A DNA stretch of 64,000 nt from Candidatus Omnitrophota bacterium (GCA_041650835.1 JBAZKL010000003.1:35682-99681), one strand, 5' to 3'; positions 2,941 through 58,686 are shown, counted from the stretch's first letter. The notes: generated by a model not told the origin, from the letters alone. Program-made: numbers and translations.

Positions 2941-4885
2941 GCTGCCACCTTTTTAAAAGCTCCCGGGTTTTTTTCCGGATGCCCGACCCGCCCCAAACCC
3001 AGCGCTTCCCCAAAAAAGCCAAATAACCCTTTGCCTCCCGGATATCAAGCTCCTCGATAAGGATCAGGCTCTCCATAACGGTCTTATTTTCCTTTCCCCA
3101 GAAATGAGGAAAGACAAAAATCTTATCCAGGGCTTTTTTTGCCGTCGCAGGGTCTTTAAGCAATATCTGTAAAGCTTCTTTCTTCAACAGGATATCCTGC
3201 CCCTCAAGGATAGAAAAGAAATATTCTTTATCAAAAACGGGCAGGCGCCCGAGGGCCTGTAATGCTTCAGACTTCATCAGCGCGTTTGATTTTGAAAAAA
3301 TATATTTCAGGATCTCCTGGGCCAAGGGCGATTGGACAAAGACCAATGCTTCAACGACCTTGCCGATCACCTCCAGATCAGCCGCTTTTTTATCCAGCTC
3401 CTCATAAAAATGAGGCAGTTGATCAGGGAAGAATTTCAGGAAAAACCTCAGGACGTACGCGTTGATAAGGCCTTCTTTAAACATCTTATCGAGGTAAAAC
3501 GGAGAATTCATCACGCTTTCCCGGATGAAAGGTATCAAGTAGTCGAAATCAGTCGGGACATTCTCCTGAAAAACGATATTCTCCACGGAATGCATGATAC
3601 GCTTACGCAGCATTTCCGATTCCGGCACCCAAAAAGGGCCTGTCTTTTCCTTTTCAACCAGGACTTCCAGGATAGAGCTGATATACTCCCATTCATTTGC
3701 CTTCACCGAAAGCTCAAATTCATTCGCTATTTTTTCTAAAATAAGCTGCAATTTCTTTACATCGGCCTCGCTGGTAAGCAAATTAAGCAAGATCAACCGG
3801 TAGTGCGTGTTCAACGTATCCTGCTCCAGCCTGAATTCTTTATCCCGCATCGTGTTTTCCAAGACCACAGAAAGCGCGTGGCGGTAGACCTCAGGGATAT
3901 ATTGATTCTCTTCGGTTGAAAAAAGAGCCTTGATCTTATTGCGCAGGCGGACATTCCCCTTTAAAGCATCAACGTTCTTCGCTTTTTGCTCAATCACGGC
4001 CGCGACTTCCGCGTGTTTGGAATTATTGACCAACTGCGAAAACAATTGAAAGCTCATAGCGTCAAAAGAATGGTCGGAAGTCATTTGGTCCCATAACGCG
4101 TCAGCCAGATTGCTTTCGCTTAAATCCTTAAACAACGCTTTTATTTCATCCGCGCTGTACTTCTTAGTAACTTCTTTATCGTTTAAGATCAACTTTAAAA
4201 GCCCCTTCGAGCAACCGGCAAACCGGTTTCCCTCCTTATCATTTTCTTTGATATATCCGAAGAATTCTTTTACGTTCTTATTAAGGGCCGTGTCTTCAAA
4301 TAGATCTTTGACCTTGAATTTACCGACGATCCTTTCAAAATTATTCGCCGCGTTAGCGATCTTCTGCGGGTCACGCTTATTCATCGCGTCGCGGAATAAA
4401 TATATCCAAATATCTTTACATTCTTCTCCCTCGCTTTTAAGCAATTGGGAAAAATCAAGCTCTTCAACAAGCACATGGCTGATCTTTTCCTGGTCAAGTA
4501 TGTTCTGCAATCCGCCTGAACGTATGATATCACGCGCGGACATAGCCATCTTGGAAAGAAAGACGATAAGCTCCTCAAGGGTTACCCCGGGGCGGATCTC
4601 CAGCCCCTGGATCTTACGGGCGTGAAAGACCAAAGTGATCTCGTTCGAAAGGGCCGCGTAGGTAATAATAAGCCCTTCCACGAACACGGAAGTATCGCTA
4701 AAATTGACCTTTATCGGGTTTGCGTAGTTCAAAAGTTCTTCGATCTTGCCTTTAAGAGCCTCTACTGACTTTATATAATAGGGATGCTCTTGAAAATAAG
4801 CTGAGGCGTTATTAAAAGCGACTTTTAAACTTTTAAAGAATTCAAGATAGGCGGTTTCTTTGTCCATAATAATACTTACCCTCAT
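2933..4885 (-). CDS. hypothetical alpha-helical (HEAT-repeat-like) protein, co-transcribed with HD-GYP (8-nt overlap)
   Basis: long ORF, helical-repeat-like composition, no recognisable catalytic motif. Confidence 0.45.
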   Translation of the reverse strand: MRVSIIMDKETAYLEFFKSLKVAFNNASAYFQEHPYYIKSVEALKGKIEELLNYANPIKVNFSDTSVFVEGLIITYAALSNEITLVFHARKIQGLEIRPGVTLEELIVFLSKMAMSARDIIRSGGLQNILDQEKISHVLVEELDFSQLLKSEGEECKDIWIYLFRDAMNKRDPQKIANAANNFERIVGKFKVKDLFEDTALNKNVKEFFGYIKENDKEGNRFAGCSKGLLKLILNDKEVTKKYSADEIKALFKDLSESNLADALWDQMTSDHSFDAMSFQLFSQLVNNSKHAEVAAVIEQKAKNVDALKGNVRLRNKIKALFSTEENQYIPEVYRHALSVVLENTMRDKEFRLEQDTLNTHYRLILLNLLTSEADVKKLQLILEKIANEFELSVKANEWEYISSILEVLVEKEKTGPFWVPESEMLRKRIMHSVENIVFQENVPTDFDYLIPFIRESVMNSPFYLDKMFKEGLINAYVLRFFLKFFPDQLPHFYEELDKKAADLEVIGKVVEALVFVQSPLAQEILKYIFSKSNALMKSEALQALGRLPVFDKEYFFSILEGQDILLKKEALQILLKDPATAKKALDKIFVFPHFWGKENKTVMESLILIEELDIREAKGYLAFLGKRWVWGGSGIRKKTRELLKRWQRE

Positions 4886-6074: not shown

Positions 6075-6150
6075 TGCAGAAAGCCTACCTGCCGGTAGGC
6101 AGGCAGCACACACCGCCATCCCTATAAGCGCGGGATGTAAGCAGAAAACC
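6075..6150. repeat. REP-like units including cctacctgccggtaggcagg palindrome
   Basis: ctgcagaaagcctacctgccggtaggcaggcagcacacaccgccatccctataagcgcgggatg. Confidence 0.5.
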
Positions 6151-6915: not shown

Positions 6916-7069
6916 TTCTGCCTCCTTTGTATATTAGATGAATTCCACTGATAAATCCTGTAAAAACCGATATATTTAAAGTATAACACAATTTGGGGAA
7001 GCTGTAAAGGTAAGGGAACAAACTTAATAAACAGCTGACAAAGCATGTTTTGAACAACACATTAAGAAA

Positions 7070-7192
7070 GTCTAAAGTATAAAGACTCAATAACAAAGGA
7101 AGGTTAAAGAATAAAGGTTTAATTTTAAAATTTAACCTTTATTCTTTGGGTTTCCTTTGTTTTTTAAGCTTTAGACTTTTAAATTAACGTTA
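7070..7192. repeat. AT-rich ~130-bp palindromic element (copy 1 of 4)
   Basis: gtctaaagtataaagactcaataacaaaggaaggttaaagaataaaggtttaatttt | aaaatttaacctttattctttgggtttcctttg... Confidence 0.55.
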
Positions 7193-11700: not shown

Positions 11701-13273
11701 GCGGTTTCGCGGATAACACCGCATGGGGGGAATCATTTCCCATGGAGCCAATAGGCTCCTGGCCGGTCTCAGCCATAGGCTTAATAATGCTTTTAAGGTC
11801 TTCCCGGGTATAGCCGAACGCCTTTAAAGTTACGAGAACATTCTTTGCTTTAACTTCCCTGGGCTTCTTTTCAGGCAAAGCGTCAAAATCAACCAAATGC
11901 TCTTTAAGCCAGTCGCCATAGGGTTTTTGCCCGGCGATCGTCTCTTTAACCTCTTTATCGTCGATCAAGCGGCCCGCGTGAGTGTCGATAAAGAATATTT
12001 TACCCGGCTCAAGCCTTCCGGAGCTGACAATGTCCTCGGGAGCAATATCCAGGACACCGACTTCAGAGGCCATAACCACGGTATCATGCCTGGTAATTAT
12101 ATACCGCGCCGGCCGCAACCCATTACGGTCGAGCACAGCCCCTACTCTTGTGCCGTCGGTAAAAGCGATCGCCGCGGGGCCGTCCCAGGGCTCCATGCAA
12201 CTGATGTGATATTTATAGAAATCTTTTACCCCGGCGTCCATATGGGCATCATGCTCCCACGCGGACGGAATAAGCATCATCATAACGTGCGCGAGGGACC
12301 TGCCTGATAACAAGAGAAGTTCAAAAACATTATCCAGGGTCGCTGAATCGCTGCCGCCGGGGACGACAATAGGCAGGATCTTCTTTAACTCTTTGCCCAA
12401 CAGAGCGCTTTTCATGAGCCCCTGGCGCGCCTGCATCCAATTTATGTTGCCGCGCAGCGTATTGATCTCGCCGTTATGCGCCAGGAAGCGGAACGGCTGC
12501 GCCAAGTCCCAGGTAGGAAAAGTATTCGTGCTGTAGCGTGAATGCACCAGGCCCAGCGCGCTCTTAAGGCGGCTGTCGCGAAGATCAGTAAAGAACGTAT
12601 CCACCTGATGAGGCATTAAAAGGCCTTTATAGGAAAATGTACGGCACGAAAGATTAGTAATATAAAAAAACGATCTTTGTTTTAATGAAGAGGCCCTGAC
12701 GAGATTTTCGACTTTTTTCCTGATGATGTAGAGCGTTCTTTCAAAAGCCAACTCATCCGCGAAAGCAAACTCATCTTTGCCGCGGGAAATATTCTTACCG
12801 ATAAAGACCTGTTCAATAACCGGTTCGCTCTCTTTCGCAGCCTGTCCTATCACGTTATTATCAACCGGCACTTCCCGCCACCCTAAGAGCAATTGACGCT
12901 CTTCTTTGATTGCCGCCGCAAACGCATTTTTACAGAACGCGCGCTCCTTTTTATCCGTCGGCAGAAAAACCAGCCCTGCGCCATAGCCCCCCTGGGCGGG
13001 GAGGCTGATCTTTACTTGCCGGCAGACATCGGTAAAGAATTCATGCGGCATCTGGATCAAAATACCCGCGCCATCCCCGGTCTTCGGATCAGCGCCTGTG
13101 GCGCCGCGATGGGAAAGCCGGTGCAGTACCTCAAGTGCGGACCTGACGATCTCATTGGAACGCTTCCCTTTTATGTTACAGACAAAGCCGACACCGCAGG
13201 AATCATGTTCAAAACGGCTATCATAGAGCCCGTGACGTTCTAATGCTTCTCGATTGTTCATTAACACACTCAT
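8708..13273 (-). CDS. gltB: glutamate synthase large subunit
   Basis: 1521 aa; N-terminal Ntn amidotransferase with Cys-1 (FEHDSCGVGF), FMN and GXGXG domains. Confidence 0.95.
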   Translation of the reverse strand: MSVLMNNREALERHGLYDSRFEHDSCGVGFVCNIKGKRSNEIVRSALEVLHRLSHRGATGADPKTGDGAGILIQMPHEFFTDVCRQVKISLPAQGGYGAGLVFLPTDKKERAFCKNAFAAAIKEERQLLLGWREVPVDNNVIGQAAKESEPVIEQVFIGKNISRGKDEFAFADELAFERTLYIIRKKVENLVRASSLKQRSFFYITNLSCRTFSYKGLLMPHQVDTFFTDLRDSRLKSALGLVHSRYSTNTFPTWDLAQPFRFLAHNGEINTLRGNINWMQARQGLMKSALLGKELKKILPIVVPGGSDSATLDNVFELLLLSGRSLAHVMMMLIPSAWEHDAHMDAGVKDFYKYHISCMEPWDGPAAIAFTDGTRVGAVLDRNGLRPARYIITRHDTVVMASEVGVLDIAPEDIVSSGRLEPGKIFFIDTHAGRLIDDKEVKETIAGQKPYGDWLKEHLVDFDALPEKKPREVKAKNVLVTLKAFGYTREDLKSIIKPMAETGQEPIGSMGNDSPHAVLSAKPQLLFTYFKQLFAQVTNPAIDPIREELVMSLFSFIGPAKNLLEETPEHCHRLFIKHPILTNSELEKIKKIKINGFRTKVISLLFAVSEKNGFRKALKRICADAEVAIKEGYTFIVLSDRGVDQEQAGLPALLATGVVHHHLVRKSLRTQIGIFIESAEPREVHHFALLFGYGADCVNPYLAFEAVAQLIKDGELSLDLKAALKNYCKAIDKGILKILSKMGISTLQSYRGSQIFEALGLHQEVIDLCFTGTVSRIGGAGIDTIAQETLLRHREAFPVRSIDAPFLPSGGLYQWRRDGEFHLWNPESIAALQDAVRKDDQKKYVEFAQCINDQSRQPTTLRGLLKFKKSASRVPLGEVEPVSEIVKRFATGAMSFGSISRGAHETIAVAMNRLKGKSNTGEGGEDPARFTPLPNGDSKRSAIKQVASGRFGVTTNYLVNADELQIKISQGAKPGEGGQLPGHKVSVTIAKTRYTTPGVTLISPPPHHDIYSIEDLAQLIFDLKNTNPRARISVKLVSEIGVGTIAAGVAKGHADMILVSGGDGGTGASPLSSIKHAGLPWELGIAETHQTLVLNDLRSRVRLQTDGQMRTGRDVAMAALLGAEEFGFCTAVLIVMGCVMLRHCHLNNCSVGVATQDEILEKKFQGRPEYITRYFNFVIEELRSIMSELGVRTMDEMIGRTDLLEVNEAILPWKARKVDFSKILYKPKVPQSVATHCRRTQDHGIDKILDLKLIEMSKPSLDEAKPVNLNLEIRNTDRTTGAMLSGEVCRRYGETGLPEDTIHCVFKGVAGQSFGAWLAKGVTFELEGMCNDYVGKGISGGKIIVYPDKKAVFDPEENIIIGNTTFYGAITGEAYVRGIAGERFCIRNSGLYTVVEGVGDHGCEYMTGGRVVVLGKTGRNFAAGMSGGIAYIYDTLGVFPRKCNMEMVELQKPGAQDIETLHQLVTNHYKYTQSRLAGQLLGDFRNKVKHFVKVMPLEYKRILEEKGLQKKLKQEEVSDG

Positions 13274-13285
13274 GCTTTCGGTAAT

Positions 13286-13528
13286 TTATAAATGTTTATA
13301 GTTATTCGGATCGATCCCTAATTTTCTTATTTTTGAGCGCATGGTATTGCGGTTGATGCCTAAAATGCGGGCGGCTTTCAGCTGGTTGCCTGCGGTACGC
13401 TCGAGCGCGCGTTCAAACAAGGGCTTCTCTACCGTTTCAATAATGAGCTTATATAATACACCTTTCTTGTTCTGATACAAGAAATTCTCAAATTCAACGA
13501 CTTTGCCTTTTAACGAATTGATATCCAT
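13286..13528 (-). CDS. Fis-family DNA-binding protein, first gene of fis-gltB-gltD operon
   Basis: C-terminal HTH QLKAARILGINRNTMRSKIRKLGI. Confidence 0.7.
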   Translation of the reverse strand: MDINSLKGKVVEFENFLYQNKKGVLYKLIIETVEKPLFERALERTAGNQLKAARILGINRNTMRSKIRKLGIDPNNYKHL

Positions 13529-13695
13529 TCTTGCGCCTTAAAAGGGCCTATGCCCAAAGTTTAAGCAATAGAGAATAAAAAAAAACGCCCACACAAACGC
13601 TTTACTTCGCGCCTGTAATGAACGTCAATGTTCAATCTTTATTCTTTATTACTGTCGGCACAACAATGTGCCTAAATAATATACAATAGCTTCTT

Positions 13696-13731
13696 ATTAT
13701 ATACAAGTAAAAAAATAATAATCCTGGTAAC
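13696..13731 (-). promoter_or_regulatory. promoter for fis-gltBD: GTTACCAGG-N21-TATAAT (extended -10 TGTATATAAT) reading toward lower coordinates
   Basis: plus strand ATTATAtacaagtaaaaaaataataatCCTGGTAAC; same architecture at four other loci. Confidence 0.5.
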
Positions 13732-13828
13732 ACTTATTTTCATGAAACCAGTGACTTATAAAGAAGCGCCACCATACATCATTTATACCTGAACAACAAT
13801 AGTTATGTTTAAGAAAGGCTTTATTAAT

Positions 13829-14002
13829 GAACGGGTCCTGTCTTGGACTGTTTTCTCGCGGGGACGTTTGCCCCGCCCCGGCGTGGCGGGGCTGCACTCA
13901 GGTCGGCTGCGTCGCTCTGCCCGACTTCGTTTATCGAGGGGCATCCGTGCCCGCTCCTTGCCTTTATGCCCCACTCGTAAACAGTCCAAGCCACCCGTTC
14001 AC
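13829..14002. ncRNA. structured element E1 (~174 nt; long closing stem, internal hairpins), paralog of E2; candidate regulatory RNA/DNA element upstream of fis-gltBD promoter
   Basis: ends gaacgggtcctgtcttggactg ... cagtccaagccacccgttcac pair; compensatory changes against E2 in at least three stems. Confidence 0.5.
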
Positions 14003-14175
14003 TAACAGAATTACCAACCAAACACATAACACAGGTCTCATGACACAAACAACTGATTTATTAGATAACGAATCTGGCGGTTTTTCGAGCGCCCTCCTTC
14101 TCCCTTTTATAGACTTGCAATATCTTTGGCGGACTTCGGAGGATAAATAATGTCGATTTTAAAATTTTAGTTAGC

Positions 14176-14342
14176 GGGTGCCGAGGCGCGATTTGAGCAG
14201 GACGTAAAGGCGACGAGCGGGCATGGTGTCCGAGCGCATAGCGCGAGGACGAGCGAGGAAGCCGATGCGAGCGAGCTTTTCCACGCCGGGGAAAAGCGAG
14301 CGTTCCTGCGAAAACGCGCCTCGGCAGGACCCGCGAAATTCC
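14176..14342. repeat. long-hairpin element F1 (14-bp terminal inverted repeat gggtGCCGAGGCgcg...cgcGCCTCGGCagg, GAGCG-rich interior), immediately 3' of GltB-like gene
   Basis: paralog at 18274-18432 with covarying terminal repeat. Confidence 0.5.
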
Positions 14343-14452
14343 TAAACGAAAAGATTGACAGGGACATTCTAGTTATACGACTGTAAAATAAAAACGGGGT
14401 TTGCCCGGACAACACCGGACAAACCCCGCACAACTTCAAAAAAACCGGCGTA

Positions 14453-16045
14453 TTATTTCCCGTCGATTATTTTTTCCGCTTCTTTACGGTAGGCATCCAT
14501 CACATACGGTATCCCTGAGATCTCCTCCGCTTCTTTGGTCAAGCTCATCAGGTCTTTGCGTGAGATGCTCTTGAGGCTGAAATTCCGCGAGCCAGCCATC
14601 AATTGCTGCAACCCTACCCTTAACCGCTGGCTGAAAGTATAAATTCCCACAGCTCCCAACGGGATATCTTTCATATCCTTACCGTATTTCTCCGCCAATT
14701 CTTCATAGCAGACGAAGATCTCTTCCGGCTTGGTACCGAATTCTGATACCGTCGGAGGCAAGGTGCCGTTCTTGATCCAATCGCCGACATTCTTACCGAC
14801 GAATCCGGGGATCATGAGCGCCCGGCCCATACACACAGCCTTGACATACGGAGACCCCATAGCGATCACTTTAAAGATATGATCCTCAAGGGCAAAACCA
14901 CCGGCGATAGCGATATCCGGGATCCGCATTTTCTTCTTGGACAATCTGTCGCAGAATTCCTGCGTCAACGCCTGCAGATAGAATGTGGGAATACCCCATT
15001 CCTGCATCATTCTCCAGGGGCTCATACCGGTGCCGCCGGGAGCGCCGTCAATGGTCAAAAGGTCGATCTTTGCCATTGAGGAGAACTTTAACGCCTGCGC
15101 TAACTCCACCATAGAATAGGCGCCGGTCTTAAGCGTTATCCTCTTAAATCCGAGGTCTCTTAATCGTTTTATCTCTTTCATGAAGCCTTCTTCAGAGACA
15201 AAACCTAAACGGGAATGGCGTTCGAATTCTTTGATAGCGCCGGCTTTAAAAGCTTCCTGGGTAGCATGCACTGTCGGGTCCGGGGTAACGATATACCCGC
15301 GCTTCTTCAATTCAAGCGCCCGTTCAAGGGACTTGACCTTGATCTCACCGCCGATACACTTGGCGCCCTGGCCCCATTTCAGTTCAATGGTATCCAATTT
15401 ATGTTTCTTACGCACATATTCAGCAACGCCTAAACGGGTATCTTCGACGTTCATCTGAACTAAGATCTCGCCAAATCCGTCATGGAACCTTTTATAAAGC
15501 TCGATCCTTCTATCCATATCAGGAGCGCTGGTGATCTTGCCTTTACCGTCTAATTCCAGCTTCGGGTCAATACCGCAGACGTTCTCGCCGCAGACGATGG
15601 TGACACCCGAGATCGCGGCACCGATAGCAAAATGCTCCCAATTCTTACGGGCGATCTCCGTTGAACCGAGCGCGCCGGTAAAAATAGGCATTTTCATTCG
15701 AACCTTCATATCCCAGCCGTATTCGGTCTGAGTATCGACCGAAGGGAACGTAGCGGTATCCGGACCTCCCTCAACTCCCTTAGGCATACCGTTTGCGCCC
15801 TGGGCATACCCCTGGATATTCAAATGGGAATAATCAACCGGATAATCCTTGTCGCCTCCGGCGGTCATTTCACCGAACGGACCCGGATAGATCACTTCTC
15901 TTCCTCTAAATGATGATTTGAATACTTCGCAATTACCGCGGCAAGACTCAAGACAACGGGAACATAACCCTGAGCAAGGCACTACATTTTTAGAACGATT
16001 GAATGTACGGGTTGCGTCATTCCCCCCCGGAGTTCGTAAATTCAT
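14453..16045 (-). CDS. glutamate synthase domain-2-like FMN-dependent protein (archaeal-type GltB homolog)
   Basis: 530 aa; glutamate synthase FMN domain-like sequence (GAPGGTGMSPW..., IAGGF) preceded by Cys-rich N-terminus. Confidence 0.75.
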   Translation of the reverse strand: MNLRTPGGNDATRTFNRSKNVVPCSGLCSRCLESCRGNCEVFKSSFRGREVIYPGPFGEMTAGGDKDYPVDYSHLNIQGYAQGANGMPKGVEGGPDTATFPSVDTQTEYGWDMKVRMKMPIFTGALGSTEIARKNWEHFAIGAAISGVTIVCGENVCGIDPKLELDGKGKITSAPDMDRRIELYKRFHDGFGEILVQMNVEDTRLGVAEYVRKKHKLDTIELKWGQGAKCIGGEIKVKSLERALELKKRGYIVTPDPTVHATQEAFKAGAIKEFERHSRLGFVSEEGFMKEIKRLRDLGFKRITLKTGAYSMVELAQALKFSSMAKIDLLTIDGAPGGTGMSPWRMMQEWGIPTFYLQALTQEFCDRLSKKKMRIPDIAIAGGFALEDHIFKVIAMGSPYVKAVCMGRALMIPGFVGKNVGDWIKNGTLPPTVSEFGTKPEEIFVCYEELAEKYGKDMKDIPLGAVGIYTFSQRLRVGLQQLMAGSRNFSLKSISRKDLMSLTKEAEEISGIPYVMDAYRKEAEKIIDGK

Positions 16046-16125
16046 AATCCCCCCTTTTTTGTTGAAGAAAGCCTACCTGCTTAATAATTATGCACATTAT
16101 GCTTATCTTTTGGGCACCATTGCTC

Positions 16126-16243
16126 AAAAAAAAAGACGACCTTCTCACGAGAGAATGGACGCCATTGTCCACTGCAAATCATGTAAATTGTATCTTATCA
16201 TAAAAGGTCGTTTTGTCAACTATTGGATTAATTGGGTAACTGG
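16126..16243 (-). promoter_or_regulatory. promoter (TTGACA-N17-TAAGAT with upstream GGTAAC-type motif) and leader with small hairpins followed by U9 run, for GltB-like gene
   Basis: minus strand GTTACCCAAttaatccaatagTTGACAaaacgaccttttatgaTAAGAT; downstream ggtcgtcttttttttt. Confidence 0.4.
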
Positions 16244-16332
16244 CGCGGAATAAATGACTTTCTTTCCTATAAAAATAGTAACCAAACACACGTAAGTCTA
16301 AGACAATGGTCTATGATCGCAGGAGATCGGGT

Positions 16333-16506
16333 GAACGGGTCCTGTCTTGGTTTGTTTTTCGCAGGGACGTTTGTCCTGCCCCAGCGTGGCAGGACTGCAC
16401 TCCCTTTCAGCCCCTCACTCTGCCCGATAATTTTTTAGAGGGGCAACCATGCCCGCTCGGGGCTTCCAGAGGCCCTGCTCAAAACTAAACCAAGCCACCC
16501 GTTCAC
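16333..16506. ncRNA. structured element E2 (paralog of E1), upstream of GltB-like gene promoter
   Basis: same 174-nt length and termini as E1; stems gcaggg/ccctgc, tcctgcc/ggcagga, cttggttt/aaaccaag covary with E1. Confidence 0.5.
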
Positions 16507-16568
16507 AATAAAAATGCTATCAAGACACATAATACAGATTACAGGACACAAGTATTCCATGGTAGATG

Positions 16569-16730
16569 GAAAACTTTACGGTTTTTGCTTTAAGCGCACA
16601 TTTGAAAACTTTCGGCACAAGGGTTTTATCTGCAGTGCGCAAAGATTTACGGCGAGTTGAAGCACGCTCTTTACGTAAGTCTATTGCGTAAACGAGCCGT
16701 AAACTGTAGCGCACGGCGAAAGTTTTTTTG
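16569..16730. repeat. rod-like structured repeat K1 (aaactttacgg...ccgtaaa termini), paralog at 22896-23066
   Basis: shared blocks aaactttacggtt-tgct-aagcgcacatt-gaaaacttt and gttgaagcacg; 5' gaaaactttcg pairs with 3' cgaaagtttt. Confidence 0.45.
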
Positions 16731-16800
16731 CTGCAGAAAGCAGCACACCTGCGCATTTTCCAATAAGCGCAGGGTGAAGCGTAAGCAAAAAGCGGAAAGT
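16730..16800. repeat. REP-like hairpin unit (ctgcagaaagcagcacacc-tgcgca-ttttccaataa-gcgcagggtg)
   Basis: same family as 60-360, 6075-6150, 33735-33790, 60010-60060. Confidence 0.5.
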
Positions 16801-16920
16801 TATATCGCAAAAATAGTGGATAATAGAATATCTATGGCTAGGGAATCAAGGAAACCGGGGATCGTGGTAAAAAAGTCACAAGACGCAACCGCTGTGATTA
16901 AATCGAACCGTCCCCTATTT

Positions 16921-17577
16921 TTAACGAGGATGCAGCTTCTTCCAGCGCTCAGTAAAAAGAAAAAAGACTCCCGGGCCGAAGGAGCACAACATGACTGCCA
17001 GGCCGAAAGCGATCCCCAGGAATGTGCCAAAGCCGGCGCAGCAATAATTCCTGTAGCGCGCCAGGATATGTAACGGGACCGCCACCAGAAGTTCCAGGAT
17101 ACTGCCGCGAAAAAAGCTCAGGCGGATCCTTTCTAAGAAAGATTGCGGTGCCAGCTTCCTGCTCCAGACATAAAAAACGCATCCCCAAACAACCCAAGAC
17201 GCTCCCAACGCAGCAAGCGCCAGCCATTCTTTCATGTTTTTACCCTGGCTCACGGTTTCATTGATCGCCAAGACTATCCCCGCAACAAGTAATGCCATCA
17301 GCAGAGAAGAAAACACAACCACCGGCACAATGCTACGTTGTGAAACCGGCCGGCGATCGGTCAGGTCTACATGAACATCGAGCAACGCTGCCTGGGCAGC
17401 GAGAAACAAGGCAAAGCCCACCCAATAAGGCCAATGAGTAAAAAGCTCCTCGAATGCTTTGAGATTTATATTATTTTTAGGGTCAAGGCTCAAAAAAGAC
17501 AGGATAGTGACAGGAAAGGTAAAAATGATAATGATCAATCCGTACAGCGCCAATACCACCAGAGCCCATTTTTTCAT
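16921..17577 (-). CDS. integral membrane protein, unknown function
   Basis: 218 aa, several hydrophobic helices. Confidence 0.5.
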   Translation of the reverse strand: MKKWALVVLALYGLIIIIFTFPVTILSFLSLDPKNNINLKAFEELFTHWPYWVGFALFLAAQAALLDVHVDLTDRRPVSQRSIVPVVVFSSLLMALLVAGIVLAINETVSQGKNMKEWLALAALGASWVVWGCVFYVWSRKLAPQSFLERIRLSFFRGSILELLVAVPLHILARYRNYCCAGFGTFLGIAFGLAVMLCSFGPGVFFLFTERWKKLHPR

Positions 17578-17620
17578 ACCATCCCCCTTAATAACAACCG
17601 TATATACCGTTAATTTTAAA

Positions 17621-17748
17621 AGCTAAAGGCTAAATAACAAAAGAAGATTAAAGGTATAAGGTTTAATTTTAAAATTTCCTACCTGCCGGTAGGCAGGAAC
17701 CTTTTGCCTTTGAATTTTCTTTGTTATTTATTCTTTAGCCTTTAAACT
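17621..17748. repeat. AT-rich ~130-bp palindromic element (copy 2 of 4)
   Basis: arms aaaggctaaataacaaaagaagattaaaggtataaggtttaatttt / mirror image, central cctacctgccggtaggcagg. Confidence 0.55.
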
Positions 17749-17759
17749 TACATCAGTAC

Positions 17760-17987
17760 CTATACTTCTTTCTTTATCACCTTGAAAAACTGTAGCTTCT
17801 TACACTGAGGGCATAAACCCAGGGTCCTTTTCCCCTTACTCTTGGCGTAAGCGCGCACGCCGCCGGCAGCCCAATATGATATCGAATAACCGCACTGCGG
17901 GCATTCCAGAAACCATTTCTTGGATTCATCCTCGACTTTCTGAAAAACCTTCTTAGGCAGTAACTTTTTGAGAATTTTGCGTAACAT
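17760..17987 (-). CDS. small zinc-ribbon protein (CxxC...CxxC)
   Basis: 75 aa, CPQCGYS...CPQCKK. Confidence 0.4.
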   Translation of the reverse strand: MLRKILKKLLPKKVFQKVEDESKKWFLECPQCGYSISYWAAGGVRAYAKSKGKRTLGLCPQCKKLQFFKVIKKEV

Positions 17988-18273
17988 AGCGCATCCTCCT
18001 TACCTTACCATAATCCCAAACATATAAATCTCCTATTCCTTCGAAGCCCTACCAATGAGAAAAAAAACCTGCCATATCCCCTTAATTCTAACATCGATCG
18101 ATCTTGCATATATTCCCTTTCTTCCGGTTTATAATAACCTCAACTTAATAAACCTTCCGGCAGTATTACAGATAAATTACCCCTTATTGATTTATTGTAC
18201 CGCTCATATACCGCTTGTCAATGTTTTAAGGGGAGTAAAGCGGGGGGAAACTTGGTCAAGATGAGAGTTATGC

Positions 18274-18432
18274 GGCTGCCGAGGCATGTTTTGAGCGGCA
18301 CATAAGGAAACTTGAGCGGGCACGGCTTGCCGCATTCTCAAATAATTACCAAGAGCGAAAGTTTCCGCTGAGCGCAGATTTTTCACGCTGGGAAAAATCA
18401 AGCGATGCCGCGAAAAATATGCCTCGGCAGCC
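18274..18432. repeat. long-hairpin element F2 (ggctGCCGAGGCat...atGCCTCGGCagcc), immediately 3' of amidotransferase gene
   Basis: paralog of F1. Confidence 0.5.
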
Positions 18433-18475
18433 ACAACATTATCTCAGCTCGAAATCTTTCAGTAGTATAAAATGA

Positions 18476-19180
18476 CTAAGCGGAAACCGTAGATCTGATT
18501 ATATTGAGAAAATTACGATAGAGAATATTGGCGTGCGCGTCAAAGGAAGCTTTGTTTTCTCGGAATTCATTGCGGATCTTTGTAAAAACCGGTTGTTGTT
18601 TATTTTTTGCGTAAGCATCGATCCAGGAATCAACGATCGCCGGAGTCACTTCGATATGGAATTGCAGACCATAAGCATTCTTACCCACGCGAAACGCCTG
18701 ATGCGGGCATTTCTCAGACGAAGCTAACAGCACCCCGCCTTTGGGAATTTCGAACATATCCTCATGCCACTGAAAAACCTTTAAATCAAAAGGCAAATCT
18801 TTAAAAAGGGCATCTCGCCTGCCGGCTTCAGTAAACCGCACCTCTGAAAACCCGATTTCTTTTTGCGGCGAATTCCCCACTTTCGCTTCGGCTGCTTTGG
18901 CCAAGAGCTGGCTGCCCAGGCAAATCCCAAGAAAAGGGATACCTTTCTTGAGGATTTCTTTTATGAAAGCATCTTCTCCTTTTAAAAAAGGGAATTTATT
19001 ATCTTCATAAACATTCATCGGCCCGCCCAAAGAAATGACCGCCTCTATTGCGCTCAGGTTGACCGGTAATACTTCCCCCTTGCTCAGGTCAATAACAGAA
19101 AAAGAACGGGCAGTATCGGTCAAGAAACTTCCGATACTGCCCGGCCCTTCGATATCTATATGCTTTACCGCAATGATCAT
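18476..19180 (-). CDS. class I glutamine amidotransferase-like protein
   Basis: GICLGSQLL nucleophile elbow, His/Glu region FHIE. Confidence 0.75.
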   Translation of the reverse strand: MIIAVKHIDIEGPGSIGSFLTDTARSFSVIDLSKGEVLPVNLSAIEAVISLGGPMNVYEDNKFPFLKGEDAFIKEILKKGIPFLGICLGSQLLAKAAEAKVGNSPQKEIGFSEVRFTEAGRRDALFKDLPFDLKVFQWHEDMFEIPKGGVLLASSEKCPHQAFRVGKNAYGLQFHIEVTPAIVDSWIDAYAKNKQQPVFTKIRNEFRENKASFDAHANILYRNFLNIIRSTVSA

Positions 19181-19195
19181 GCGTTACATATTCGC

Positions 19196-21391
19196 TTATT
19201 TAATGAACAACATCTCCCTGTATTTCGGCAGGTCCCAATGTTCGTCGGAAACAACCGACTCCAGCGCATCCACATGCTTTCTGATATGCTCCATCAAAGG
19301 CTTAAGCTCTTCAAAATAAAGCATAGCGCGTTTTTCCCCGTCAAGTTTTCCCGCCTTCTCTAAAAGCTTCATCATAGCCTTGGTATTGCGCCTGACGTAA
19401 TAGATCTTGGAGGTAACCTCGCTTAAATGCTCTTTTTGATCATCAAGGGCAGCTTCCTCAAACTTCACCTTAGCGCTCTTCTTAAGATCAGCCACTTCGC
19501 CGATGGTCTTTGCCAGCATATGCTGATATTCGATGCCCGCGGGCACGACACTGGCGTTTACCATTTCATTGAGCGTCTGCGCTTCGATCTCCAGGACCAA
19601 ATTATAAGTATGGATCCAGATATGATACCGCGCCACCAGCTCTTCCTTGGTAAAAACCTTATATTTCTCAAAAAGGGCGATATTCTTTTCTTCGGTCAAT
19701 GCCTCAAGGGCTTGCGCGGTTGAAGCGACGTTCGGCAAGCCTCTCTTCTTTGCTTCTTTGACCCATTCTTCCGCGTAGTTATTCCCTTCAAAACGGATAT
19801 CCTTGGTATCCTTAACTACTTCGGAGACCACTGAAAGCACTGCCGCGTTGAATTCTTTACCGCCTGATTGCGCTTTCCTGATCTTCTCGGCAACATAATC
19901 AAGGCTCTCGGCAATGATCGTATTAACTACCGCGATCGGCGTGGAGATATTCTGCGAAGAACCTACCGCGCGGAACTCAAACTTTGCGCCGGTGAAAGCA
20001 AACGGGGAAGTCCGGTTCCTGTCAGTCGAATCTTTATTGAACTTTGGCAGGCGCGCAACGCCTAAATCAATAACATCGCGCTTTGAAACGCTTGATTTTG
20101 CCCCCTTCTCAAGCATATTCAAGATCTGGGTAAGCTGTTCACCCAAAAAGACGCTGATGATCGCAGGAGGAGCTTCGTTCGCGCCAAGCCTGTGCTCATT
20201 ACCCGCCATGGCAACGCTTGCGCGTAAAAGATCGGAATGATAATAGACCGCGCGCAACACCGCTGCCAGCACTGCGAGAAACTGCAGGTTATCCTCGGGA
20301 GTATCTCCCGGATTAAGCAAATTATTGCCTTTATCATCGGCTAAGGACCAATTAAGATGTTTGCCGCTTCCATTAATTCCCGCGAATGGTTTTTCATGCA
20401 AGAGGCAGACTAATCCATGGCGAAGCGCCACCTTCTTCATTAAATCCATTAAAAGCTGGTTATGGTCAGCCGCCAGGTTTGACTCTTCGAAGATCGGAGC
20501 GAATTCATACTGGTGCGGAGCGACTTCGTTATGCCGGGTAGTCACCGGTATCGCGAGTTTATAAGCTTCTTCGGCGACCTCAAACATAAAATTAAGCACG
20601 CGGTCTTTAATGGTGCCGAAATACTGGTCTTCCAGCTGTTGCCCCTTAGGAGAAGCAGCGCCGACGAGTGTACGGTTAGCCATGACCAGGTCCTGCCTGA
20701 GATTATAATAATTTTTGTCGATCAGGAAATATTCCTGTTCCGGGCCGCAGGTTGAATATACTTTCTTGACATCTTTATGGCCAAAAAGCTTTACCAGATT
20801 AACCGCCGCTTTATTTAAGGCTTCATCTGAACGCAGCAACGGTAATTTCTGGTCTAAGGCATCTCCATGATAAGAGATAAAAATCGTTGGGATACAAAGA
20901 GTTCGCCCTAATTTGCTCTCCATGATAAAAGCGGGGCTGGTCGGGTCCCATGCGGTATACCCGCGCGCTTCAAAGGTCGCGCGGATGCCGCCTGAAGGAA
21001 AGCTGCTGGCGTCCGGCTCTCCCTGAATAAGCCGCGAACCGGAAAATTTCTCAATGACTTTCCCGGGGGCGGTTATAGAGATAAAGCTATCATGCTTCTC
21101 GGCGGTCAAGCCGGTCATAGGCTGGAACCAATGCGTATAATAGGTAGCCCCTTTACTCATTGCCCAATCCTTCATGGCATTAGCGATCTCATTTGCCTGC
21201 TCAAGAGTAATAGTCTTGCCTTCATTCATCCATATTTTGAACGCTTCCAGGGTATCTTTAGAAATATGCTTTTGCATAGTTTCCAGATTAAAGGTATTCT
21301 CGCCAAAATAGCTGGAAACCTTTTTCGGCGATTCATTCTTTACTAAATCCACACTTTTGATCTTAACAAGCAGCTCCTGACGAATTCCCAT
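19196..21391 (-). CDS. glnN: glutamine synthetase type III
   Basis: ~730 aa, GS motif NGSGKHLNWSL; the ATG at ~21391 follows SD AAGGAGG (track ORF extends to a TTG at 21409). Confidence 0.85.
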   Translation of the reverse strand: MGIRQELLVKIKSVDLVKNESPKKVSSYFGENTFNLETMQKHISKDTLEAFKIWMNEGKTITLEQANEIANAMKDWAMSKGATYYTHWFQPMTGLTAEKHDSFISITAPGKVIEKFSGSRLIQGEPDASSFPSGGIRATFEARGYTAWDPTSPAFIMESKLGRTLCIPTIFISYHGDALDQKLPLLRSDEALNKAAVNLVKLFGHKDVKKVYSTCGPEQEYFLIDKNYYNLRQDLVMANRTLVGAASPKGQQLEDQYFGTIKDRVLNFMFEVAEEAYKLAIPVTTRHNEVAPHQYEFAPIFEESNLAADHNQLLMDLMKKVALRHGLVCLLHEKPFAGINGSGKHLNWSLADDKGNNLLNPGDTPEDNLQFLAVLAAVLRAVYYHSDLLRASVAMAGNEHRLGANEAPPAIISVFLGEQLTQILNMLEKGAKSSVSKRDVIDLGVARLPKFNKDSTDRNRTSPFAFTGAKFEFRAVGSSQNISTPIAVVNTIIAESLDYVAEKIRKAQSGGKEFNAAVLSVVSEVVKDTKDIRFEGNNYAEEWVKEAKKRGLPNVASTAQALEALTEEKNIALFEKYKVFTKEELVARYHIWIHTYNLVLEIEAQTLNEMVNASVVPAGIEYQHMLAKTIGEVADLKKSAKVKFEEAALDDQKEHLSEVTSKIYYVRRNTKAMMKLLEKAGKLDGEKRAMLYFEELKPLMEHIRKHVDALESVVSDEHWDLPKYREMLFIK

Positions 21392-21534: not shown

Positions 21535-21569
21535 TTATATACAAGTAAAAAATGCTTGCGCTTGGTAAC
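21535..21569 (-). promoter_or_regulatory. glnN promoter: GTTACCAAG-N21-TATAAT
   Basis: plus strand ATTATAtacaagtaaaaaatgcttgcgCTTGGTAAC. Confidence 0.5.
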
Positions 21570-21608
21570 TTTTTTTACCCTTAAAACGCGGCTTTTCCAC
21601 AGCCGTCT

Positions 21609-22742: not shown

Positions 22743-22895
22743 AGCCGGCTCCTTTTTGTTATGATTATTAATAGTATAGTAAAACACAGATTAAAAGAAC
22801 GTTAAAATAACATTAAGTTTCTTTAATGATTGCAAGACACATGACACAAGTCGCAAGTGGTCAGTAGTCCACAGTCCATAGTCGATAGTAATTGA

Positions 22896-26759: not shown

Positions 26760-27101
26760 TCATCCGATTGCTCCTGGACCTCGTTCTTCGGTACGGATAC
26801 GCACGCATTCCTTAAGGTCTAAGACGAAGATCTTTCCGTCGCCGGTCTCCCCTGTCTTGGCTCCCTTGACGATCGCTTTTATCGTCGGCTCTACATAATT
26901 ATCGTTCACCGCGATCTCAAGGCGGATCTTTCGCAGAAGGTTCCCCGTTTCTTTGGCGCCCCGGTACACCTCCGTAACACCCTTCTGCCTGCCGTGCCCC
27001 AACACTTCGCTTACCGTGATCAGGTTAACTTCCGCTTTATATAACTCCTCTTTTACTTCCTCTAACTTGTATGGTTGTATTATCGCTATTATTAACTTCA
27101 T
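26760..27101 (-). CDS. glnK: nitrogen regulatory protein P-II (copy 1)
   Basis: [17 protein letters not shown]..., T-loop RYRGxxY-like region; >99% nt identity to copy at 28862-29206. Confidence 0.9.
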
Positions 27102-27119
27102 ACATCCTCCTTTTCCAAA

Positions 27120-27225
27120 GTCACCAGACACATGTCACAAGTCACAGGTTACAGATCGCAGATGCAAACTGTTCCAATTGTTCTTGTGTCTTGTGACCTG
27201 CGACTTGTGACTCTATATATTCTTT
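27120..27225. repeat. inverted-repeat element with CAGACACATGTCACAAG motif between amt1 and glnK1
   Basis: gtcacaagtcacaggt ... gacctgcgacttgtgac. Confidence 0.4.
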
Positions 27226-28454
27226 TACTCCAATACCGTATACGCCCTCTCCCGGTGCTGCGTCAGGTCAAGGCCCATCATCTCTTCCTTCTCCGTCACG
27301 CGCATCCTAAAGAATATATCCACAAGTTTATATATAACAACCGTGCCGATAAAAGTATAAACTACAGCAACCCCCAAACCGGCCGCCTGGATCAATAATT
27401 GCTTCGGGTTCCCGAAAAACAATCCGTCAGCGCCAGCCGGGTTGACCGCCTTGGAAGCGAATAACCCGGTCGCGAGAGTCCCCAGGATACCTCCAAGCCC
27501 ATGGACACCGAAGGCATCCAGAGAATCGTCATAGCCGAATTTCGGCTTGATCACTGCTACGCCGATAAAACAAACAATGCTGGCAAATATCCCTATTACG
27601 AGCGCGGAAGACGGGCTGACAAAACCGGAAGCAGGGGTAATGGTCGCAAGTCCTGCGATAGAACCGGTAACAATACCGAATACGGTCGGCTTACCGTTGC
27701 GTATCCATTCCAAAAGCGCCCAGCTTAATCCGGCGCTGGCCGCGGCGGCGTTCGTCGCCACAAAAGTACTGACTGCCAGCCCGTTAGCCGCCAGAGCGCT
27801 GCCCGCGTTAAAACCGAACCACCCGAACCAAAGCAGCGCCGTCCCTAAAACTACCAAAGGAAGGTTATGCGGAGCAGGGACATTATGTTCAAGGTTTTTT
27901 CTCCTGCCGATTATTAAGGTAGTCACGAGCGCTGCTATTCCCGCGCTCGTATGCACAACAATGCCCCCCGCGAAATCAAGCACTCCTAAATTCTTAAGCC
28001 AACCTCCCTCACCCCAGACCCAATGGCAAAGAGGGGCGTAAATAAAGGTGCTCCATAAAAGAGTAAATACCAAAAATGCCGAGAAGCGGATCCTTTCCGC
28101 GAAAGCTCCGATAATAAGCGCAGGAGTAATGATAGCGAACATCGCCTGGAATATCATGAATGCCTGGTGCGGGATCGTCCCGGCATACGCGGCATACGGC
28201 TCTACCCCCACGCCGTTCAATCCAAACCAAAGCGAACCGCCCCAAAAACCCTTCCCCGGAGCAAACGAAAGGCTATAGCCAAAAAGCATCCAATGCACCG
28301 TCAACAAACATAAAACAAAGAAACATTGCATCAAGACGCTCAAAATGTTCTTTCTTCTGACCATCCCTCCATAGAAAAAGGCCAATCCCGGGGTCATTAA
28401 CATAACAAACGCGCTCGAGAATAAGACAAATACCGTATCTCCCGAATTAATCAT
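27225..28454 (-). CDS. amt: ammonium transporter (Amt family), copy 1
   Basis: 409 aa, 11 TM, typical Amt signature. Confidence 0.9.
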   Translation of the reverse strand: MINSGDTVFVLFSSAFVMLMTPGLAFFYGGMVRRKNILSVLMQCFFVLCLLTVHWMLFGYSLSFAPGKGFWGGSLWFGLNGVGVEPYAAYAGTIPHQAFMIFQAMFAIITPALIIGAFAERIRFSAFLVFTLLWSTFIYAPLCHWVWGEGGWLKNLGVLDFAGGIVVHTSAGIAALVTTLIIGRRKNLEHNVPAPHNLPLVVLGTALLWFGWFGFNAGSALAANGLAVSTFVATNAAAASAGLSWALLEWIRNGKPTVFGIVTGSIAGLATITPASGFVSPSSALVIGIFASIVCFIGVAVIKPKFGYDDSLDAFGVHGLGGILGTLATGLFASKAVNPAGADGLFFGNPKQLLIQAAGLGVAVVYTFIGTVVIYKLVDIFFRMRVTEKEEMMGLDLTQHRERAYTVLE

Positions 28455-28547
28455 AACCGCTCCTCTCTGCTGATTTGCTCAACTGTTTACACAATTGAAT
28501 AAAAGAACCCAATAAAAATTCCTCCATAGAAAAACGAAGGATTATTG

Positions 28548-28735
28548 GCACCCCGGCTTAAAGGAGTGCCGGGTATGCGCCTTCTGCGGCAACACCCCGG
28601 CTTAAAGGAGTGCCGGGTATGCGCCTTCTGCGGCAACACCCCGGCTTAAAAGGATGTGCCGGGTGTGTTGCTTTCTGCGTACACCCCGCGCTATTCTGTA
28701 TTGCGCGGGTGTGTTGCTTTCTGCAACAAAGGCGT
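28548..28735. repeat. tandem ~44-bp hairpin repeats (x3) plus REP-like unit in amt1 leader
   Basis: cccggcttaaaggagtgccgggtatgcgccttctgcggcaacac x3, then caccccgcgctattctgtattgcgcgggtg. Confidence 0.6.
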
Positions 28736-28822
28736 TTACACACAACTGTTACTATACAATCGTGCATAAACGCCTCTGTTTTGAAAACACAAGCACTGCA
28801 ATGTGCTATTTTATTCTTCTCT

Positions 28823-28855
28823 CTTTACAAGTAAGATAGCACATCTCCTGGTAAC
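28823..28855 (-). promoter_or_regulatory. amt1 promoter region with CCTGGTAAC motif (weaker -10)
   Basis: plus strand TCTTTAcaagtaagatagcacatctCCTGGTAAC. Confidence 0.35.
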
Positions 28856-28861
28856 TATTAT

Positions 28862-29206
28862 TTATCCGATCGCCATAGCTCCCTTTTCTTCGGTACGGAT
28901 ACGCACGCATTCCTTAAGGTCTAAGACGAAGATCTTTCCATCGCCGGTCTCCCCTGTCTTGGCTCCCTTGACGATCGCTTTTATCGTCGGCTCTACATAA
29001 TTATCGTTCACCGCGATCTCAAGGCGGATCTTTCGCAGAAGGTTCCCCGTTTCTTTGGCGCCCCGGTACACCTCCGTAACACCCTTCTGCCTGCCGTGCC
29101 CCAACACTTCGCTTACCGTGATCAGGTTAACTTCCGCTTTGTATAACTCCTCTTTTACTTCCTCTAACTTGTATGGTTGTATTATCGCTATTATTAACTT
29201 CATCAA
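28862..29206 (-). CDS. glnK: nitrogen regulatory protein P-II (copy 2)
   Basis: 2 nt differences from copy 1 over ~315 nt. Confidence 0.9.
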
Positions 29207-29291
29207 AAACCTCCCTTATTCGGTTTTCGGTACTCGGTGCTCGGTTGTCGGTGACCATGTTAGCCGATAACCGAACACCGATAACCCCTGA

Positions 29292-30521
<1,230 letters not shown>

Positions 30522-33600: not shown

Positions 33601-33734
33601 GGTTTTCTTACGGCGTACATTTTCTGAAGCACATTGCGTAAAACCGTCTTTTACCGACTTTTTCGTCTTAAAGTAAAAAGGCGCCTTTTAATATTCCCCC
33701 CTGGAATAAAAAAGACGCCTGCGTCTTAACTTCT

Positions 33735-33790
33735 GCTTACACCCGGCGCAGATTGGTATTGCGCCGGTGTGCCGCTTGCTGCGGCAAATA
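33735..33790. repeat. REP-like hairpin unit
   Basis: ctgcttacacccggcgcagattggtattgcgccggtgtgccgcttgctgcggc. Confidence 0.45.
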
Positions 33791-33878: not shown

Positions 33879-33913
33879 TACTTATACAAGTGTGAAAACC
33901 TTGTTCCTGGTAA
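33879..33913 (-). promoter_or_regulatory. promoter for porin-amt3-PII operon: GTTACCAGG-N21-TATAAG
   Basis: plus strand CTTATAcaagtgtgaaaaccttgttCCTGGTAAC. Confidence 0.45.
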
Positions 33914-33918
33914 CCTCT

Positions 33919-42559: not shown

Positions 42560-42810
42560 AATTTCCCCTGCTATTCTGATTATTTCTATAAATGGGGTAT
42601 GGGTAAAGGTAAGGCGGTTAGTTTAGTAGTTAGGAAAGGTAGTTTGGGTTCAAGATCTAACTACCTTTCCCAACAACCAAACAAATATCCTAACCTTAAC
42701 CATAATCTAACACTATAGGTCATAGACCATCAACCGTGGACTAACGCCTACCTGTTTACCCCGAGCTTGTCGAGGGGTGTCTTGTGTCATGCGACATGTG
42801 CCTACAACCT
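42560..42810. repeat. mosaic repeat region between atpZ-like gene and atpB
   Basis: shares gttagtttagtagttaggaaagg, ccccgagcttgtcgagggg and cttgtgtcatgcgacatgtg modules with 51590-52130. Confidence 0.5.
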
Positions 42811-47229: not shown

Positions 47230-47500
47230 ATATTAGTTTAGCATAAATCGCCTGATAAAACGAATTTTATATTTAATACCCCCTATGGACTATCGAATAC
47301 TTGTGTCATGTGTCTGGATTCCCTTATCCCTTAGTCCCGGCTCCGGGTGCCCCAGTCGCCAGTGCCCCAGCATCCCAGTATTTTTACGATGTAACTTTCC
47401 AGTCTCTCATGGACCGTGGATCATGGACTATGGACCATCGACTACTTGTGTCTTGTGTCATGTGACCTGCGACCAAATCCCCTCATCACCTGAGGAAGCT
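47230..47500. repeat. mosaic repeats (GGACTATGGACCATCGACTACTTGTGTCATGTG-type) between pstB and phoU
   Basis: two internal copies; related to 22840-22890 and 51760-51800. Confidence 0.45.
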
Positions 47501-58528: not shown

Positions 58529-58551
58529 TCAAAAAATGGTAGTTAGATTAC

Positions 58552-58680: not shown

Positions 58681-58686
58681 AACGCG

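Follow-up and report, generated by a model that had tools for sequence, protein, structure and literature searches.

Two long hairpins that lie directly downstream of nitrogen-assimilation genes in a Candidatus Omnitrophota genome raise the question of whether the element they represent serves those genes or merely shares their spacers. We addressed it in one 64,000-nt stretch of DNA (GCA_041650835.1, JBAZKL010000003.1:35682-99681; hereafter the window, numbered from its first nucleotide), in which an initial annotation had described two copies of the element and offered a role as 3' untranslated region (3'-UTR) stabiliser or terminator, a small RNA (sRNA), or a miniature inverted-repeat transposable element (MITE) as explanations. 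The two copies belong to a family whose fold is conserved by covariation and specific to one strand. The likeliest explanation, at a probability of roughly 0.55, is a mobile-like structured intergenic repeat that works as a folded single strand and is read by a factor encoded elsewhere, and we infer that its position beside glnA, glutamine amidotransferase (GATase) and gltB genes is incidental.

Four copies in the window

Both hairpins are present on the plus strand, at 14174-14334 (copy wA, 161 nt) and 18272-18434 (wB, 163 nt), essentially where the initial annotation had placed them (14176 and 18274), except that it carried the end of wA 8 nt too far, to 14342. Each is closed by a long stem, P1, whose arms occupy 14174-14194 (GCGGGTGCCGAGGCGCGATTT) and 14311-14334 (AAAACGCGCCTCGGCAGGACCCGC) in wA and 18272-18292 and 18413-18434 in wB. 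The 14-bp closing repeats with a conserved core and covarying outer bases, as first described, are borne out: the core GCCGAGGC/GCCTCGGC lies at 14180/14318 in wA and at 18278/18421 in wB, and the outer P1 bases compensate (GGGT..ACCC vs GGCT..AGCC). The inner stems also covary between wA and wB (GCAGGA/TCCTGC vs GCGGCA/TGCCGC; CTTTTCC/GGAAAAG vs ATTTTTC/GAAAAAT), at an overall identity of 77%. As plus-strand RNA, both fold far better than dinucleotide shuffles, with minimum free energies of -87.9 kcal/mol (z = -5.1) for wA and -77.4 kcal/mol (z = -7.2) for wB, values equalled by 0 of 200 shuffles in either case.

The count of two was too low, since a profile built from wA and wB found two further copies on the other strand, wC at 16331-16506 (minus) and wD at 13828-14002 (minus). 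We refer to the strand that carries the nonamer GAGCGGGCA as M (window plus for wA and wB, window minus for wC and wD) and to its complement as R. The nonamer occurs four times in the window, once per copy: at 14215-14223 in wA, 18314-18322 in wB, 16450-16458 (minus) in wC and 13948-13956 (minus) in wD. The P1 arms of wC are GTGAACGGGTGGCTTGG...CCAAGACAGGACCCGTTCAC. A covariance model (R1) run over the 64 kb with filters off returned exactly four matches of 110-122 bits, namely wA (122.5 bits, E 9e-38), wC (120.4 bits, in the opposite orientation to wA and wB), wB (116.8 bits) and wD (109.6 bits), while the next-best score, on the reverse strand of wB, was 14.7 bits. The orientations along the window read - + - +, and wD and wA stand head-to-head with their outer P1 ends 172 nt apart.

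A branched fold conserved on one strand

Members of the family are ~150-180 nt long and form a branched structure of five helices. In the M strand, the long and variable closing stem P1 leads through a GAGC/GCGA module into stem P2 and from there to a branch point with two arms. The first arm comprises stem P3, an internal loop in which GAGCGGGCAnGGU stands opposite GAGCGA, and a hairpin of variable length, P4; the second runs through GAGCG into hairpin P5 with the loop CCACGCYGGGG (represented by CACGCCGGG at 14282-14290 in wA and CACGCTGGG at 18384-18392 in wB) and on to RAGCG, after which the P2 and P1 strands return. The recurring pairing of 5'-GAGC with 5'-GCGA would form tandem G.A pairs beside two G-C pairs. 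The arms of P1 measure 20-25 bp and close every copy, which makes them terminal inverted repeats.

In the 115 copies aligned by, and hence fitted to, the covariance model, 89.8% of cells are paired, against 57.9% in shuffled alignments and 38-46% when the partners are slid; compensatory, two-sided changes occur in 37 of the 39 base pairs, and the covariation score exceeded that of every shuffle. An earlier, independent run with MAFFT and RNAalifold had recovered these helices, again with compensatory changes in them. Near-invariance marks the junction motifs (GAGCGGGCA, GAGCGA and CCACGCYGGGG), and the first eight copies collected (four from the window and two each from the relatives L003 and L007) share GAGCGGGCAYGG, GAGYGA and CACGCYGGG, an apparent conservation that is biased by the gathering of copies with motif patterns. 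In a metagenome scan that did not require GAGCGGGCA, this nonamer was nevertheless exact in 70 of ~83 true copies among the matches listed.

The fold is also polar. In 112 of 119 copies the better fold belongs to the M strand, which is purine-rich, and the mean gain over the complement is 10.4 kcal/mol (p = 3e-20). Consistent with this polarity, G.U pairs (149) outnumber A.C positions (72), and a conserved U.G pair opens P4. Such strand specificity implies that the functional form is a single strand of defined polarity.

A tertiary contact is possible between GGGCAnGGU and the P5 loop, which have complementary bases and would form a candidate pseudoknot; since all positions concerned are invariant, covariation lends this loop-loop contact no support. 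Within the P5 loop, a double change from A..U to U..A in three copies looks like an interaction internal to the loop. A shorter relative of the element, found on the metagenome contigs L148, L152, L157, L176, L183 and L234, scores 41-49 bits with the model and keeps GAGCGA...GAGCG-P5(CCACGCYGGGG)-RAGCG without the arm of GAGCGGGCA and P4.

Distribution of the family

The initial annotation had named a search for further genomic copies as a check, and many exist. When a single genome for each GTDB species was scanned for three motifs, at least 120 stretches emerged, and the covariance model confirmed at least 118 loci, all in metagenome-assembled genomes (MAGs) that represent their species; it gave 115 and a further 26 matches in genome loci and 86 in the first 100 metagenome loci. 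Pattern matches in L032 (Actinoplanes) and L045 (Pirellulales) were rejected by the model as chance, as were ~25-35 metagenome pattern matches in G+C-rich DNA. By record title, the matches listed include 42 loci from Omnitrophota, 20 from 'uncultured Planctomycetales/Planctomycetia', 19 from the candidate phyla radiation (CPR)/Patescibacteria (Saccharibacteria, Parcubacteria, Uhrbacteria, Liptonbacteria, Paceibacterota and Minisyncoccia), 12 from Aminicenantes/Acidobacteriota, two each from Margulisiibacteriota and Bipolaricaulota, one from Auribacterota and 20 from other loosely labelled MAGs, although the phylum labels of third-party (TPA) MAG records are approximate and at least one 'Planctomycetales' assembly is an Omnitrophota relative. 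Several matches come from long contigs, among them an Aminicenantes chromosome of 4.4 Mb and Uhrbacteria contigs measuring 58-62 kb. Individual MAGs carry at least 5-8 copies: eight or more, nearly identical to each other, were counted in one from Aminicenantes, and six or more in the MAG that contains L003 and L104. The element is common in metagenomes, as judged by a second pattern without the GAGCGGGCA requirement. The pattern found no match in IMG/VR, and blastn found none in phage and plasmid collections.

The family is apparently undescribed. Rfam 15 gave no match anywhere in the window at gathering threshold, only noise (15-18 bits against thresholds of 60-97) for 13200-19300 at E up to 10, and no family covering the element in 18 diverse element-bearing loci. 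A targeted look in the 224-motif paper (PMC5737381) found no description there, and a literature search of incomplete coverage, which leaves the undescribed status unproven, found none either.

Occupancy, orientation and insertion

Comparison with close relatives suggests that copies come and go. The coding DNA of L003 and L007 is 83-89% identical to that of the window, and their complements of copies differ. L003, like the window, has a copy at the site of wB, whereas L007 and L009 have none, and in L007 the conserved promoter follows almost directly after the GATase stop codon. At the site of wC, where the window has a full copy, L003 has a truncated remnant in inverted orientation with a palindrome nested in it, and L007 has no copy; the site of wD is occupied in the window alone among the three. 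L007 in turn carries a copy between amtB and glnB that has no counterpart in the window. Close matches appear instead at unrelated positions: wA shares 97.6% identity with a copy elsewhere in the L003 genome (L104, where four copies lie within 5.5 kb in the orientations - + + -), and wC shares 96.3% with one that neighbours ruvB in a different Omnitrophota MAG (L058), with the similarity ending at the ends of P1 in both comparisons.

Each of the seven pairs whose copies are separated by less than 200 nt is head-to-head, with the 5' ends facing, against a chance expectation of 0.25 per pair (window 13828-14334; L046 5917-6260; L033 134-511; L120 6848-7132; L167 3326-3665; L196 732-1121; L073 2595-2868). 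Their gaps span 14-186 nt and the spacers have no sequence in common. Over all adjacent pairs, tallied from model matches, 19 are divergent, five convergent and 13 tandem. Seven element matches are cut by contig ends.

The insert at the site of wB measures ~250 nt, more than the element itself, and an imperfect repeat of ~14 nt (GTTTCC..GCTTTA) borders it; the flanks of the Aminicenantes copies show further inverted repeats rather than direct ones.

Genes and signals around the copies

Nearly all genes in the window lie on the minus strand. The GATase shows 100% identity to a protein recorded at NCBI for Candidatus Omnitrophota, and a contig in ENA agrees with the window without a difference over 18.5 kb. 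By crude open reading frame (ORF) calls with Pfam assignments, those around the copies are a type III glutamine synthetase (GSIII glnA, 21409-19196), the class-I GATase (19180-18476), a 75-aa zinc-ribbon ORF (17987-17760), a 218-aa ORF (17577-16921), a 530-aa Glu_synthase-domain protein (16045-14453), a Fis-type helix-turn-helix (HTH) protein (13528-13286), GltB (13273-8708) and GltD (8678-7221), all minus. Both wA and wB are downstream of minus-strand genes, wB 42 nt past the GATase stop codon and wA 119 nt after the 530-aa gene. Between that gene and wA lies the gene's own intrinsic terminator (14394-14429, minus; a 15-bp stem with 10 GC pairs and a T-run), which is also kept in L003 and L007. 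A promoter-like site for the zinc-ribbon gene, TTGACA-16-TACAAT (18194-18221, minus; 11 of 12 matches), is kept in relatives with and without the hairpin element; it is downstream of wB in the sense of the genes and thus places wB between a gene end and the next promoter. Likewise, a promoter scan found TTGACA-16-TAAGAT for the 530-aa gene at 16192-16219 (minus), downstream of wC in gene sense, which puts wC outside the 5' UTR of that gene. Copies occupy the spacer that runs from a gene end or terminator up to the following promoter.

Beyond the window, the neighbours are unrelated. The genes that face ~120 copies by their 5' or 3' ends represent 149 and 136 different Pfam families, none with more than three to four members, and no flanking gene family is enriched around these copies. 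Relative to flanking genes, 46 copies are antisense, 30 sense, 13 convergent and 12 divergent. Relatives at ~65% GATase identity (L009-L012) have the same nitrogen cluster and no copy. In the 130 kb of element-bearing loci, the only other RNAs found were a tmRNA, tRNAs and one c-di-GMP-I riboswitch (81 bits; L104 3760-3847, between two element copies), with no ribozyme among them.

The element does not appear to encode a protein, in agreement with the initial annotation's view that the overlapping small ORFs are incidental. The best frame is open in just 55 of 110 copies, the spacing of conserved anchors modulo 3 is evenly spread (40/36/34 in the same 110), and the small ORFs overlapping copies in the window have no Pfam match; the frame and anchor-spacing data rule out coding small ORFs. 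A publicly called 131-aa 'gene' in L003 (1225-1620) lies wholly over an element copy and its flanks, likewise has no Pfam match, and is probably a false call, attributable to a G+C-rich, stop-poor sequence.

Nitrogen control in the window may instead reside in another signal. The minus-strand motif GTTACC-N~16-TTTTTACTTGTATA(TAAT) occurs at 13700-13739, 21538-21577, 28824-28863 and 33883-33914, upstream of HTH_8-gltBD, GSIII glnA, amtB and one more operon, and L003 and L007 have kept it; in the form GTTACC...TACTTGTATA it recurs upstream of gltB, glnA and amtB. The motif may be a promoter or operator of the nitrogen regulon, and it is a better candidate for nitrogen control than the hairpin element.

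A probable mobile-like repeat and its rivals

On the reading we favour, the element would behave as a non-autonomous mobile or duplicative intergenic repeat that inserts, in either orientation, into spacers that separate a gene end from the following promoter. Copies would be gained, lost, truncated or replaced between close relatives, and head-to-head pairs would be favoured. The working form would be a folded single strand, either RNA or, as in repetitive extragenic palindromes (REPs), their paired forms (REPINs) and IS200/IS605-type elements, single-stranded DNA (ssDNA), and a factor whose gene lies elsewhere in the genome may recognise its invariant purine-rich junctions. In read-through transcripts, the 20-25 bp of P1 would form a stable hairpin, presumably a side effect and not a selected function.

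Several observations weigh against this reading. Target-site duplications, which the initial annotation had proposed to look for, showed no consistent case at the sites examined, and transposases, reverse transcriptases and integrases are not enriched among flanking proteins. Transposase families are absent from the top Pfam families of 224 flanking proteins, and the flanking proteins in slices of 8-20 kb around matches indicate no RAYT (REP-associated tyrosine transposase, of the Y1 HUH type). Unpaired nucleotides are conserved across phyla and subtypes are 96-98% identical between species, a pattern that fits an RNA gene under selection better than selfish DNA in decay; the conserved loop nucleotides suggest specific recognition or catalysis. 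CPR genomes appear to hold few copies among the matches listed. Furthermore, TAnnnT hexamers occur just 5' of P1 on the M side in 46% of cases against 27% in the opposite-orientation control, and the 5' side of the element has more spacer than the 3' side, a combination that hints at a promoter of its own. RNA and ssDNA as working forms are not separable on sequence alone.

Other explanations start from RNA. We consider it possible, though less probable, that the family is an unrecognised, phylum-spanning class of structured RNA, catalytic or the specific partner of a protein, that propagates itself as a mobile unit; such a class, present in Omnitrophota, CPR and Aminicenantes, would have ~39 covarying pairs as well as two loops that do not vary and three tandem-GA modules of the GAGC/GCGA type. 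Independently transcribed genes for trans-acting sRNAs, paralogues with their own promoters whose M-strand RNA binds a protein or other RNAs, seem rather unlikely. The strong strand specificity, the junction nucleotides invariant across phyla, and the survival of distinct subtypes at 96-98% identity, against 83-89% for the coding DNA of the species concerned, would suit such genes, as would the larger 5' spacer with its modest excess of -10-like hexamers, and head-to-head pairs could share a divergent promoter region. However, sigma-70-type -35/-10 signals upstream of the element show no excess over the opposite-orientation control, no terminator follows P1, and the homology between genomes ends exactly at P1 and so does not include a promoter; some head-to-head gaps, at just ~15-40 nt, are too short for two promoters, and occupancy that varies between close relatives, with truncated or inverted remnants, is not what this explanation expects. 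More doubtful is a new class of self-cleaving or otherwise catalytic RNA dispersed like hammerhead or twister: a multi-helix junction clamped by P1, with few invariant nucleotides and freely covarying stems, present in several copies per genome, mainly in environmental sequence and with no consistent gene neighbourhood, would resemble those ribozymes, and the invariant bases permit the contact of GGGCAnGGU with the P5 loop. Yet no Rfam ribozyme model matches even at E up to 10, no known ribozyme lies nearby, and covariation does not back the loop-loop contact.

The two explanations that would tie the element to the adjacent genes fare worse. The initial annotation's idea of a 3'-UTR stabiliser or terminator for the upstream nitrogen genes is improbable, despite the short distance of 42 nt from the GATase stop to wB, in which no other terminator lies, the median distance of 66 nt from the conserved core to the upstream gene end in the antisense class, and a P1 that would block 3' exonucleases in either orientation. 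The element lacks the U-tract of an intrinsic terminator: over the 14 nt after the hairpin T and A each make up a fraction of 0.30, whichever the orientation, and the terminator scan picks the hairpin at 14394-14429 rather than any element copy, so the proposed terminator role fails. Nor does a dedicated 3'-UTR role agree with the mixed orientation of the copies or with their placement, wA being beyond a canonical terminator, wC starting 415 nt past the upstream stop, and wD separated from the 530-aa gene by both that terminator and wA. At wA and wB the best-folding strand is antisense to the upstream gene, whose transcript would carry the poorly folding one. The same operons exist in relatives without the element, and such a role would leave the conserved multi-helix core unaccounted for. 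A nitrogen-responsive riboswitch or cis-regulator of glnA/gltB-type genes is scarcely credible. All copies in the window, L003 and L007 do lie inside the amtB-glnB-glnA-GATase-gltBD cluster, an ascertainment effect since the L003 and L007 loci were fetched as that cluster. Mixed orientation, unrelated housekeeping neighbours elsewhere and absence from the L009-L012 clusters effectively rule it out and undo the link to nitrogen genes first proposed; in addition, wB and wC stand upstream of the next gene's promoter, outside its 5' UTR, and the separate GTTACC...TACTTGTATA motif marks the nitrogen genes.

Relation to known elements

A mobile-like repeat of this kind would have its nearest parallels in REPs, their bacterial interspersed mosaic element (BIME) arrangements and the RAYT-mobilised REPINs, which are likewise non-coding hairpin repeats of intergenic spacers, present in many copies and either orientation, with frequent inverted doublets, occupancy that varies between relatives and no adjacent transposase. 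Strand-specific recognition of ssDNA of the REP/REPIN type would explain the strand-specific fold. However, REPs (20-40 nt) and REPINs (~100 nt) are simple palindromes restricted to a species or genus, whereas the present element is 150-180 nt long, has five branched helices and keeps its junction motifs across phyla. ERIC/IRU, Correia (NEMIS), RUP, BOX and MITEs resemble it as imperfect palindromes of 100-200 bp that sit in spacers in both orientations, form long RNA hairpins when co-transcribed and break assemblies, but they lack a conserved asymmetric core backed by covariation. To our knowledge, the ERIC/IRU, Correia, RUP and BOX families are each limited to one genus or family. The initial suggestion of a MITE or small RNA pointed to the right general area, and terminal inverted repeats are indeed present, but the flanks contained no parent insertion sequence and the sites no consistent target-site duplication.

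Among structured RNAs, the hammerhead, twister, twister-sister, pistol and hatchet ribozymes are similar in being small multi-helix structures closed by P1, with covarying stems and junctions in which few nucleotides are invariant; they too occur in multiple copies per genome, lack a fixed gene context and abound in metagenomes. They and HDV-like ribozymes differ in that the element has no Rfam similarity to them and is larger than most. The HEARO RNA (the omega RNA of IscB/IsrB) and the TnpB RNA of IS605-orfB elements are also structured RNAs associated with mobile DNA, with stand-alone copies, yet the present element lacks a nuclease or transposase ORF beside it, does not match them in Rfam, and is bounded by a closing stem of its own. 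The glutamine riboswitch (glnA RNA) and the Downstream-peptide motif share the proximity to nitrogen-assimilation genes and sometimes occur in several copies, but they are ~60 nt long, always 5' and sense, and in Rfam, in contrast to an element of mixed orientation without a match. We also considered integron attC sites and rejected them: the copies alternate in orientation among syntenic core genes, the ends TTAGCGG..CCGCTAA misfit the R''/R' boxes (RYYYAAC/GTTRRRY), and no integrase is enriched.

Other repeats in the window

The window contains further repeats of several kinds. A second family of AT-rich imperfect palindromes, ~120-160 bp and intergenic, is found at 7067-7190, 17601-17763, 51871-52036 and 58545-58694. 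Repeats rich in TGTGTC/GACACA lie at 14019-14060, 16522-16563, 22834-22889, 27125-27218, 42777-42809, 47448-47480 and 51751-51820; two are just 5' of wD and wC, and they also occur without the element, including at the empty site of wD in L003 and L007. Repeats around TTTGCTGCAGAAAGCAGCACACCCGCGCA occur in both orientations (57-346, 6114-6146, 16719-16755, 28662-28730 and 33731-33787), a tandem array of ~7 copies of a 47-nt unit spans 52084-52426, and the amtB/P-II region at 26762-29982 contains a duplication of ~2.1 kb, with blocks 78-96% identical and both amtB ORFs 409 aa long. A REP-like palindrome of ~20 nt, CCTGCC(N4-6)GGCAGG, is nested in or beside element copies; it was located at 17680-17693 and ~51950 in the window and at L003 1366-1506, L097 3689-3855 and L104 ~3603-3625, and it occurs in MAGs labelled Omnitrophota-like and Parcubacteria.

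Implications

The element matters in practice for genome reconstruction and annotation, since it breaks MAG assemblies, gene callers annotate hypothetical proteins over its copies, and it could mislead the prediction of nitrogen-gene regulons. Its combination of REP/MITE-like behaviour with a core of riboswitch or ribozyme grade that is shared across phyla is unusual and raises the questions of whether it cleaves or ligates, which protein may read GAGCGGGCA and the CCACGCYGGGG loops, and whether it moves as RNA or as ssDNA. Should it prove to be an RNA class, it would be an 'RNA gene without a neighbour', whether selfish or domesticated, with a standing like that of twister or HEARO when these were first found. 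If the family is truly undescribed, it would provide a well-supported structured element for CPR/Patescibacteria, Omnitrophota and Aminicenantes, lineages whose characterised non-coding biology is scarce.

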